Below, in pieces: positions 23,104-23,886 of a stretch of DNA of 64,000 nt; within the stretch, counting starts at the first letter, position 1; each line of letters starts with the position of its first letter. The notes below the pieces were generated by a model. It searched no databases. It worked only from the letters and a program-made list of their open reading frames with translations, and was not told where the DNA came from. Source of the DNA: a phage; NCBI GenBank assembly GCA_020857175.1, contig GCA_020857175.1_3048.1; one strand, written 5' to 3'. The position numbers were made by a program, and so were the translations under genes.

Positions 23104-23886
23104 ATGGCAGTAGTTGGTGTTCCCGGTTGGATTGGAAGTTCATCCGTAAATGAAACGGGTCAGCGCTGGATGAGTCAAGCGGCTGGTCAATTAAGATTGG
23201 GTGTTCCTTGCTGGATGAGTCAATTTGCAGGTCGCTCACGAGAAATTATTCACACACTTGGAGCGGACCATAACTTCAATGGTCAATGGTTCCGAGATAG
23301 ATGTTTTGAGGCAGGTAGTGCACCTATAGTGTTTAATATCACTGGAGATTTAGTATCATATTCTAGAGACGTTCCTTTATTCTTCATGTACGGAGATACA
23401 CCGAATGAATATGTTCAATTGAATATACACGGCGTAACGATGTATGGTCGCGGCGGGAATGGTTGGGCTGCTGGAGCGATTGGAGCGTCTGACGGTGGTG
23501 TATGTATCCAAAATGATATAGGTGGACGCCTACGAATTAATAATGGGGGAGTTATTGCTGGCGGCGGCGGCGGTGGCGGTGGACATTCGCAAGCCAATAA
23601 CTGGGCAGGAAAATATGTATATGGAGGCGGCGGTGGTCGTCCATTTGGTTTAGGCGGAAATAATGGTGCTCGATGGCCTGGTGGAAATGCTAGCTTAACA
23701 GCACCTGGTGCTGGTGGTAATACTGGCCGATATTGGGCTGGCGGTGGAGGTGAAGTTGGTCAACCAGGTCAATATGCTAATCCAGGTAGTGGTTATTCAA
23801 CACCTCCGACAAATCCTGGTGCTGCTGTAGCAGGATCGGCTCCAACATGGCAAAACGTTGGAGCCGTATACGGTTCAAGAGTATAA
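23104..23886 (+). CDS. 38: gp38 receptor-binding adhesin, T2-type with glycine-rich motifs
   Basis: 260 aa with multiple poly-Gly stretches separating short variable segments; unlike 183-aa T4 gp38 chaperone. Confidence 0.75.
23560..23583 (+). repeat. (GGC/GGT)8 trinucleotide repeat encoding Gly8 in gp38
   Basis: ggcggcggcggcggtggcggtgga seen directly. Confidence 0.8.

Follow-up and report, generated by a model that had tools for sequence, protein, structure and literature searches.

A recombinant gene 38 allele encoding a predicted PP01-type fiber-tip adhesin with a polyglycine helix in a Tequatrovirus locus

Introduction

The gp38 "receptor-recognizing proteins" of phages T2, T6, and M1 have OmpF/FadL, Tsx, and OmpA, respectively, as their receptors. 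Adhesins of this kind are well known: two structures have been solved by crystallography, the receptor interface has been mapped, and genetic work on them extends over decades. [quoted passage not shown] Its fold and its loops B, D, and E have been described, along with the cleft between loops 5 and 7 of OmpC into which loop E enters; the Y159A and A228D substitutions each abolish the infectivity of PP01, while 16 of the 19 substitutions at Y230 and the deletion of G208 are tolerated (PMC12892980). In phages RB51/RB68, the single gp38 substitution Q206L, located in HVS3, switches the receptor from OmpF to OmpW (bioRxiv 10.64898/2026.04.02.716166). Host range can also be expanded by "His-box" duplications in gp37 of T4, according to Tetart et al. 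(1996) as cited in PMC3157838.

We analyzed gene 38 in a window of 64,000 nucleotides from a phage contig (GCA_020857175.1_3048.1, assembly GCA_020857175.1). All the features located below lie on the plus strand, and their coordinates are those of the window.

Gene 38 and its neighborhood

The gene 38 ORF (23104..23886) starts with ATG and encodes a protein of 260 aa. This product matched both Gp38 adhesin families above the curated cut-offs: PF21721 over aa 1-42 (3.1e-19, 69 bits) and PF05268 over aa 47-260 (3.6e-72, 243 bits for a cut-off of 25), the latter match covering the full model (1-218). [quoted passage not shown] The identity of the gene and its domain architecture are directly evident here: on the strength of these matches, the gene is assigned to a Tequatrovirus phage and its product to the T2/T6/S16 class of gp38 receptor-binding adhesins, and this product is predicted to be a monomer capping the gp37 trimer. 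An identical protein is already present in NCBI under the name "receptor-recognizing protein" (HBK9475762.1), and the product shares a 90% cluster with those of EC121, UFV-AREG1, Sfk20, KMB42, and others.

The N-terminal attachment domain (aa 1-42; 23104..23229) carries the Trp prongs W9, W22, and W37. Neither W22 nor W37 varies in either alignment, and W9 is near-invariant in the 10-sequence alignment, where it is replaced by Asn in one S16-like protein. The RBD (aa 47-260; 23242..23883) is predicted from PF05268 and from its identity of about 97% with 9V85 to consist of a beta-helix, a PGII sandwich, and five distal loops. Alignment to the solved structures 9V85 and 6F45 placed the GRMs in a fixed order between the hypervariable loops, and the GRM columns at about G153-G159 and in GGGGGRPFG are invariant in the alignments with PP01, T2, T6, M1, and S16-like proteins. 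In addition to a Gly8 tract, the gene encodes a Gly5 tract (aa 174-178; 23623..23637), which is followed by RPFG and is present in all the 173 homologs parsed, a Gly4 tract (23740-23751), and seven GG pairs. The first-pass annotation, which had described a 260-aa product following gene 37 and carrying several poly-Gly stretches, was therefore correct as regards both the ORF and the tracts.

Gene 38 lies directly downstream of gene 37 (20119..23067), which encodes the distal subunit of the long tail fiber (982 aa). Matches with PF20744 and with PF13884 (Peptidase_S74, aa 870-928) were found in gp37, and a predicted autocleavage motif, DVYIR^SD, is located at aa 865-871; cleavage after R869 (nt 22725) would release a tail of 113 aa. 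The same motif and a 113-residue chaperone are present in the fPS phages and S16 (PMC7917993). The holin gene t (23919..24575; PF11031, 5.6e-117) completes the canonical T-even order 37-38-t, the whole order being 34-35-36-37-38-t, and the best matches of the locus were with Tequatrovirus phages (98%). The 37-38 intergenic region contains a small G/C hairpin, AAGGGGG-AAATG-CCCCCTT (23073..23091), just 5' of the gene 38 ribosome-binding site GGAG (23092-23095); its folding energy of -14.8 kcal/mol is unremarkable (z = -1.75). No convincing promoter or terminator was picked up by scanning, the terminator-like match being on the minus strand only.

The assembly of the tip probably proceeds as in the systems described above. 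Once gp37 has trimerized, its 113-aa C-terminal chaperone would cleave itself off, exposing the gp37 tip as a docking site for gp38, which would attach to it by its N-terminal helical domain via W9, W22, and W37. The remainder of gp38 would form the beta-helix, and its glycine-rich segments would fold into a three-layer PGII lattice holding the five short variable loops distally, where they would bind the bacterial receptor.

Comparison with described gp38 proteins

Over aa 38-260, the RBD and its counterpart in PP01 gp38 are identical at about 97% of positions (89% over the whole protein), and the two proteins have the same Gly8, Gly5, and Gly4 motifs, identical loops A, B, and C, and the same C-terminus. 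They differ in the N-domain, which begins with MAVAG--PW in PP01 and MAVVGVPGW in the window, and in the accompanying gp37, which has 1109 aa in PP01 vs. 982 in the window. Within the RBD, H161, Y173, and V150 of the window allele replace Y159, C171, and an Ala of PP01, loop D reads NTGR-YW instead of NTGTGYY, and the tip of loop E carries Ser instead of A228. The DNA identity is about 84% overall (127 differences).

The closest DNA relatives of the RBD are the PP01-type gp38 genes of CAM-21, vB_EcoM-G157lw, and bov9_1, the hosts of which include O157:H7. Only 7 differences were found in about 640 nt of RBD; the tract has the same length, and loop D is likewise short (NTGQ-YW). These genes nevertheless have another type of N-domain, their first tract codon is GGA vs. 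GGC in the window, and the substitutions A150V, Y161H, C173Y, Q209R, and N229S separate their products from that of the window.

The gp38 of S16 is more distant (about 50% identity, different loops, 249 vs. 260 aa), but it has the same three-domain architecture, an aligned Gly8, and GGGGGRP after loop B; of the three Trp prongs, W22 and W37 are visibly conserved. The gp38 proteins of T2, T6, and M1 belong to the same family and have the same gene position and GRM/HVS layout, and the N-domains of T6 and M1 are nearly identical to that of the window; however, the overall identities are 51, 71, and 73%, respectively, the HVS loops are unrelated, and the helix-3 slot of T2 is occupied by Gly7 and then Ala-Ala. 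The similarity with known gp38 adhesins on which the proposed T2/T6-type assignment depended was thus found, although the nearest allele is of the PP01/CAM-21 type and T2 itself shows only 51% identity.

Mosaic origin of the allele

The mosaic structure of the allele can be read directly from the binned mismatch profiles, which place a 5' recombination junction at approximately 23250..23290. On the upstream side of this junction, the DNA tracks the backbone of phage 107/PYps47T, and on the downstream side, the RBD of CAM-21/bov9_1 (PP01 type). The DNA of the N-domain is near-identical to that of phage 107 and diverges from that of CAM-21 (56 mismatches within the initial 144 nt). This N-domain, which is of the phage 107/PYps47T/T6 type, matches the phage's own 982-aa gp37, which is of the phage 107/AV121 type. 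Gene 38 is therefore a recombinant, in which a fiber-matched N-domain is combined with an RBD of the CAM-21/PP01 type. Homologous recombination probably joined the resident N-domain to the PP01-type RBD, the four private changes beside or in loops B and D having come later. A junction within a GRM was expected from published crosses; this was not the case, since the mismatch profiles place the crossover in the DNA encoding the beta-helix.

The Gly8 tract

The Gly8 tract (aa 153-160; 23560..23583) is encoded in frame by four GGC codons followed by GGT, GGC, GGT, and GGA; the GGC/GGT repeat reported at this place in the first-pass annotation is therefore real, the last codon being GGA. In the alignment, the tract coincides with helix 3 of S16 gp38 (151-158) and with residues 151-158 of PP01. 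The tract is accordingly assigned, by alignment, as a rigid structural element, the long central helix 3 of the PGII lattice, and since there is no room for side chains in this helix, it must be encoded by eight GGN codons.

The choice among these codons was found to follow a habit of the family. GGC accounts for 8 of the 17 in-run Gly codons of gene 38, as compared with 14% in the remaining long ORFs of the window (P = 0.001), and in 20 gp38 genes, the share of GGC is 45% within Gly runs and 18% outside them. Given the in-run share of 45%, the probability of at least four consecutive GGC codons occurring among eight Gly codons is 0.13. As a DNA repeat, the tract is weak: it contains no more than four perfect GGC units, and its Tandem Repeats Finder score of 33 falls short of the default threshold of 50. 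In 17 distinct versions of the tract, 48 adjacent identical codons were counted vs. 49.0 ± 4.1 in shuffled versions: the purity of the repeat is at chance level, and no selection for or against it was seen in this comparison. Nor was the variability of the third positions of the tract among close relatives significant (2 of 8 positions vary, vs. 19 of 204 elsewhere; P = 0.18). The GGC/GGT repeat is probably a by-product of the amino-acid constraint and of the family-wide preference for GGC and GGT in Gly runs. An explanation of the depletion of GGA in the runs by avoidance of Shine-Dalgarno-like GGAGG was dropped, as GGA-GGC starts both the Gly5 tract of the window and the Gly8 tract of CAM-21/bov9_1.

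A possible role of the Gly tracts as DNA repeats

Apart from their structural role, the Gly tracts might act as DNA repeats promoting recombination between tracts or between alleles, with the duplication or deletion of whole loops or the exchange of HVS cassettes as the outcome; new host ranges would then originate in this way instead of by the slippage of single codons. In PYps47T (54 nt) and ZN18 (51 nt), loop B is perfectly duplicated in tandem, the ends of the duplications being located in Gly9 and Gly5 tracts; both phages were isolated on Y. pseudotuberculosis. The duplications occur on different synonymous backgrounds and are independent of each other. They resemble by analogy the T4 "His-box" duplications, in which a recognition segment is likewise copied in tandem and in frame between short conserved repeats, although in another protein, gp37. 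In the window, Gly8 and Gly5 form an imperfect direct repeat of 16 nt (88%), 63 nt apart. According to Tetart (1998), cited in PMC3157838, and to PMC12032242, crossing-over within GRMs yields host-range recombinants, and in one recombinant, the sequence was swapped solely from HVS2 onwards (bioRxiv 10.64898/2026.04.02.716166). On the other hand, the junction of the window allele lies in conserved beta-helix DNA outside the GRMs, the window gene has no duplication, and the effect of the duplications in the Yersinia phages is only putative. The third positions of the tracts are, moreover, scrambled between phages, and there is thus no sign of selection for nucleotide identity. In view of both sets of data, we consider that such a role has slightly less than an even chance of being correct.

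Loops, private substitutions, and receptor

Loop B, or HVS2 (aa 163-172; 23590..23619), corresponds to Q161-V170 of PP01 according to the loop definition given in PMC12892980, and is flanked by two private residues, H161 (23584-23586) and Y173 (23620-23622). Loop D (aa 206-210; 23719..23733) reads NTGRY, which is one residue shorter than the NTGTGY of PP01, and its R209 is private. Loop E (aa 226-232; 23779..23799) reads NPGSGYS, with S229 at its tip in the place of A228 in PP01. Of the PP01 residues needed for OmpC(O157)-dependent infection, Q161, K168, Y169, Y209 (here Y210), and Y230 (here Y231) are kept, while Y159 and A228 are replaced by His and Ser.

Given the near-identity of the RBD with that of PP01, OmpC is the most probable receptor, LPS sugars presumably contributing as well; this assignment is based on PP01 as the one experimentally studied relative.

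The specificity might nevertheless have shifted from the O157-type OmpC to another OmpC allele or another porin as the result of the private substitutions, together with S229. A150V, Y161H, C173Y, and Q/T209R are unique among the 18 PP01-type proteins and are located beside or in loops B and D. On the window branch, 5 nonsynonymous substitutions and 1 synonymous one were counted, vs. 0 and 4 on the sister branches (Fisher P = 0.048, for ten substitutions in all). Two of the PP01 positions at which a substitution abolishes infectivity are changed in the window allele (Y159 to His, A228 to Ser), the geometry of loops D and E is critical in PP01, and the change of receptor in RB51/RB68 required only one substitution in HVS3. 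The source contig, moreover, belongs to the assembly of an E. coli isolate of unknown serotype. Against this, the change from Tyr to His is conservative, His being aromatic-like, and the loop-B residues Q163-V172 are all unchanged. The residue at the tip of loop E (229) varies naturally within the group (A, N, S, H), and since changes at Y230 and G208 are tolerated in PP01, the loops are robust. A shift of this kind is, on balance, possible but rather unlikely. The broader view, in which recent selection has made the allele a host-range variant retargeted to another OmpC allele or porin, and the Gly tracts of gp38 are a recurrent route to new host ranges via the gain or loss of one Gly and loop-B duplications, seems to be somewhat less likely still. 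Recognition of OmpC by a PP01-like tip remains the preferred reading.

Length variation in the Gly8 tract

According to the first-pass annotation, the (GGC)n tract was a plausible hotspot for in-frame indels that might retune the host range; in this case, Gly8 would behave like a contingency microsatellite, in which slippage displaces loop B. Rare length variants do exist. A Gly7 variant, the DNA of which is like that of bov9_1 minus one GGC unit, was found in one unverified Logan contig from SRR8797925, and in the plaque-forming Yersinia phage PYps5T, this slot is longer by one Gly. In PYps55T, (GGQ)2 has expanded to (GGQ)3 in GRM1, and both of the synonymous differences between the window and CAM-21 are located inside the Gly8 tract. 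In view of these variants and of the fact that Gly tracts flank the loop-B duplications, the idea is not absurd.

It is nevertheless largely unsupported. The conservation of the tract was observed directly: the length of the slot is fixed in 69 of the 70 loop-B sequence types (173 homologs), the 16 full-coverage phage records are all ungapped over the tract, and polymorphism in the number of repeats was detected in only 1 of the 18 PP01-type proteins and 2 of about 178 homologous sequences. In one relative, the tract is purer, (GGC)7, and yet its product is Gly8. Contingency loci are characterized by a long pure repeat and by polymorphism among close relatives, and neither feature was found here, the four perfect units, the low Tandem Repeats Finder score, the chance-level purity, and the unexceptional third positions all pointing the other way. 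The tract would, furthermore, be a fully hydrogen-bonded central PGII helix, and deletions of whole GRMs are non-viable in T6 (PMC3157838). Pattern scans for PP01-type alleles with variable tract length gave 1, 0, and 0 matches in metagenome, genome, and viral contigs, respectively, the sole match being Gly8, and a search for related loci in viral contigs gave 13 loci, none of which was of the PP01 type; PP01-type alleles are too scarce in these collections to provide a population sample. A slippage hotspot is therefore very improbable, and the tract is better regarded as a structural helix.

Discussion

The reading which best accounts for these data as a whole, and which we hold to be highly probable, is that gene 38 of the window is a recombinant allele encoding a PP01-type fiber-tip adhesin, in which Gly8 serves as a structural helix. 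The possibility that the product might be a T4-type gp38, i.e., a gp37 assembly chaperone acting outside the virion, is suggested only by the position of the gene after gene 37 and by the older designation "distal long tail fiber assembly catalyst", which several database records of relatives have kept, and it can be dismissed with near certainty, as it was in the first-pass annotation, since the full-length matches are with adhesin families only and with crystal structures of adhesins bound to the fiber tip, and since gp37 ends in its own S74 intramolecular chaperone and does not have the T4-type C-terminal receptor-binding extension.

The window gene itself matters little, as it is a recognizable member of its family, and the exact protein has already been deposited and annotated. 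In practice, it is of use for prediction: as judged from the sequence, OmpC is most likely recognized by the phage by means of a PP01-like tip. The private changes are located at functionally sensitive positions, however, and the host range therefore cannot simply be assumed to be that of PP01. Loop-B duplications bounded by Gly tracts occur twice in phages isolated on Yersinia, and the gain or loss of one Gly appears to be tolerated in relatives; although they concern phages other than that of the window, these duplications and Gly variants may be of interest to those engineering or evolving the host range of T-even phages.

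Gene 38 and its Product

Gene 38 (23104..23886, +) starts with an ATG codon and encodes a 260-aa protein. It is located between the gp37 gene (20119..23067, +; 982 aa) and the holin T gene (23919..24575, +; 218 aa), the Pfam analysis identifying the neighbors as gp36, gp37, and holin T. Residues 1-42 of gp38 match the Gp38 N-terminal domain (PF21721, 3.1e-19) and residues 47-260 cover the full Gp38 adhesin model (PF05268, 3.6e-72), and gp37 carries a Peptidase_S74 intramolecular chaperone at aa 870-928 as well as a gp37 trimerisation region. Over 14000-27000, identity to many Tequatrovirus genomes (e.g., AV121, phage 107, and PYps14T/15T) ranges from 96.6 to 98%. 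A G5/C5 hairpin (23073-23091, +) lies in the intergenic spacer between genes 37 and 38, directly 5' of the gp38 ribosome-binding site; it is statistically unremarkable (folding energy -14.8 kcal/mol, z = -1.75).

In phage S16, gp37 forms a trimeric beta-helix, the C-terminal chaperone of which is auto-cleaved, and a single gp38 monomer docks on the exposed gp37 tip via three conserved tryptophans; gp38 is a beta-helix with two turns extended into a "polyglycine sandwich" (ten polyglycine-II (PGII) helices arranged in three layers), and binds the receptor through five distal hypervariable loops (PMC6851490). The gp38 of phage PP01 has the same fold (PMC12892980). The features described for this system all have counterparts in the window protein: tryptophans W9, W22, and W37 are present, and in gp37 DVYIR|SD (aa 865-871) precedes a tail of 113 aa. 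In the PDB search, the whole protein matched S16 gp38 (6F45_D, 4e-50), and residues 38-260 matched 9V85_A (3e-135), the PP01 receptor-binding domain fused to sfGFP (PMC12892980).

Window gp38 shows 51% identity to its T2 homolog, 54% to the S16-like protein, 71% to T6, 73% to M1, and 89% to PP01, rising to about 97% in the PP01 receptor-binding domain. G153-G159 and GGGGGRPFG are common to all the sequences aligned. The first-pass annotation had proposed a T2/T6-class adhesin and suggested an alignment with the classical adhesins; this alignment, run on T2, T6, and M1, along with the Pfam, 9V85, and 6F45 matches, bore out the class, but the allele belongs to the subgroup of the OmpC-binding phage PP01, CAM-21, and bov9_1 (the PP01-type) and not to the T2-type. 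The adhesin interpretation thus holds and is textbook knowledge, and the databases already contained this allele.

The exact protein is present in NCBI as a "receptor-recognizing protein" (HBK9475762.1). Its contig of 65,226 bp, which also carries a truncated gp37 (HBK9475761.1, 710 aa), belongs to an "Escherichia coli" assembly with third-party annotation; the allele is absent from all the phage records of the INPHARED collection. The window is therefore a contig of a virulent T-even phage that was assembled together with a bacterial isolate, as a result of co-culture or contamination. Another PP01-type gp38 belonging to the same 90% cluster (P0122, WP_282836739.1; 260 aa) occurs on a 5,238,491-bp E. 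coli contig, apparently placing a T-even adhesin gene within a chromosome-sized assembly, which could be either a mis-assembly or a gp38-like adhesin of a prophage tail fibre. The database protein P0042 (303 aa) combines the Peptidase_S74, Gp38_N, and GP38 domains and is an apparent fusion between the gp37 C-terminus and gp38, or possibly a mis-called start.

The Gly8 Tract

The Gly8 repeat previously noted in gene 38 was confirmed: codons 153-160 (23560-23583) read in frame GGC GGC GGC GGC GGT GGC GGT GGA. The gene also encodes a Gly5 run (23623-23637), a Gly4 run (23740-23751), and seven Gly-Gly pairs. A 60-aa ORF on the minus strand (23415-23597, -), which includes a poly-Pro run (PPPPPPPP), simply reads the Gly8 tract in antisense and almost certainly does not represent a gene.

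The idea that this tract is a slippage hotspot was found to be largely unsupported. As a DNA repeat it is weak, containing just four perfect GGC units and scoring 33 in Tandem Repeats Finder (default threshold 50). Its purity is at chance level (48 adjacent identical codons vs. 49.0 +/- 4.1), a run of (GGC)>=4 has a probability of 0.13, and the third positions are scrambled from phage to phage. Third-position variability is not significantly raised (P = 0.18), and the purer (GGC)7GGT tract of a relative still encodes Gly8. The length of the slot is fixed within 69 of the 70 loop-B types among 173 parsable homologs, in which the Gly5 following loop B is invariant. In six clusters at 90% identity, comprising about 85 near-full-length proteins, only one sequence departs in tract length. 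All 16 phage records covering 23500-23660 align as a single ungapped 161-nt piece, and the net gene length in 40 close phage records falls into two classes one codon apart; where this was checked (two cases), the codon maps to loop D. Single-unit changes do occur and can be tolerated, as the following variants show: a Logan contig (SRR8797925; L014:1501-2274) has Gly7 where its relatives have Gly8, its DNA being that of bov9_1 minus one GGC; the isolated phage PYps5T (L023:653-1456) has IAA-G8 in this slot instead of the IAA-G7 of its relatives; and PYps55T (L022:3168-3977) has (GGQ)3 instead of its relatives' (GGQ)2 in glycine-rich motif (GRM) 1. Changes of plus or minus one unit are nevertheless rare (roughly 1% of sequences) and lack the signatures of contingency repeats. 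Other rare in-frame indels in or near these motifs are an additional Ser following Gly8 in PYps55T and the loss of four loop residues (QYGN) in PYps35T (L021:2997-3782).

Structure and genetics likewise speak against a hotspot. The tract corresponds to PGII helix 3, which in S16 (151-GGGGGGGG-158) is the longest helix, the central GRM 3 forming a saturating hydrogen-bond network with its neighbors (PMC6851490). G154-G159 are invariant in every alignment, and positions 153 and 160 accept only Ser or Ala. In T6, attempts to recover whole-motif deletions of GRM2, GRM3, or GRM4 failed (PMC3157838).

Codon usage in the Gly runs is also biased. In gene 38 of the window, runs of four or more contain 17 Gly codons, 8 of which are GGC; the proportion is 4/44 outside the runs and 14% among the Gly codons of the remaining long ORFs in the window (P = 0.001 for the runs vs. 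these ORFs). In 20 gp38 genes (the window and 19 related genes), GGC, GGT, GGA, and GGG make up 45, 44, 10, and 1% of the codons inside the runs vs. 18, 51, 25, and 6% elsewhere in gp38. This family-wide enrichment in GGC and depletion of GGA and GGG, specific to the runs, occurs in an AT-rich genome (35% GC), and may plausibly reflect a preference for the codons that the major host tRNA-Gly(GCC) reads, combined with the avoidance of long G homopolymers.

Mosaic Origin, Probable Receptor, and Loop-B Duplications

Mismatch profiles divide the region into two parts. The 3' end of gp37, the spacer between the genes, and gp38 up to about nt 140 match phage 107/PYps47T exactly or almost exactly and are very unlike CAM-21, bov9_1, and PP01. 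From ~23284 onward, the holin gene included, the DNA is near-identical to CAM-21/bov9_1 (7 differences in ~640 nt), and phage 107 is strongly divergent between 23464 and 23880. This switch of nearest relative places a 5' crossover at about 23250-23290, outside the glycine-rich motifs, in conserved DNA that encodes the beta-helix, where the attachment domain meets the specificity domain. The N-domain type goes together with the resident gp37 (982 aa), whereas PP01 combines a different N-domain type with a gp37 of 1109 aa. Modular exchange of this kind was described by Trojet et al. (2011; PMC3157838).

In comparison with CAM-21, the receptor-binding domain shows two synonymous differences, both in the Gly8 tract, and five nonsynonymous ones: A150V (23550-23552), Y161H (23584-23586), C173Y (23620-23622), Q209R (23728-23730), and N229S (23788-23790). 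Of the 18 PP01-type proteins compared, the window protein alone has V150, H161, Y173, and R209; residue 229 is naturally A, N, S, or H within the group. When changes are assigned to branches by reference to bov9_1 and CAM-21, 5 nonsynonymous and 1 synonymous substitutions fall on the window branch, as compared with 0 and 4 on the others (ten substitutions in total; Fisher P = 0.048). The five differences are concentrated around loops B, D, and E, which in PP01 engage the OmpC(O157) cleft between loops 5 and 7, loop B apparently also touching LPS sugars; infection by PP01 is abolished by Y159A, Y209 mutants, Y230 deletion, Y230P, A228D, and A228 deletion (PMC12892980). H161 and S229 in the window occupy the positions of PP01 Y159 and A228. 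By homology, OmpC is most likely the receptor of window gp38, but the receptor-allele specificity of PP01 should not be assumed, since in RB51/RB68 one substitution in hypervariable segment (HVS) 3 switches between OmpF and OmpW (bioRxiv 10.64898/2026.04.02.716166).

Glycine-rich motifs have already been proposed as recombination sites (PMC3157838; PMC12032242). Two phages isolated on Yersinia pseudotuberculosis have a perfect tandem duplication in gp38, 54 nt long in PYps47T (L015:301-1137, MT515755.1) and 51 nt long in vB_YepM_ZN18 (ZN18; L001:1501-2331). In each, the repeated unit comprises loop B (YYSPFSQMRLTF) and a Gly run, and its ends fall in the flanking Gly9 and Gly5 tracts. Since the periods and the synonymous background differ (TTG vs. 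TTA, GGA vs. GGG), these duplications are independent events. In the window, the Gly8 and Gly5 tracts share a 16-nt direct repeat (88%, 63 nt apart), so that the substrate for a loop-B duplication is present there too. The loop-B duplications may be a convergent adaptation of host range, analogous to the His-box duplications of T4 gp37.
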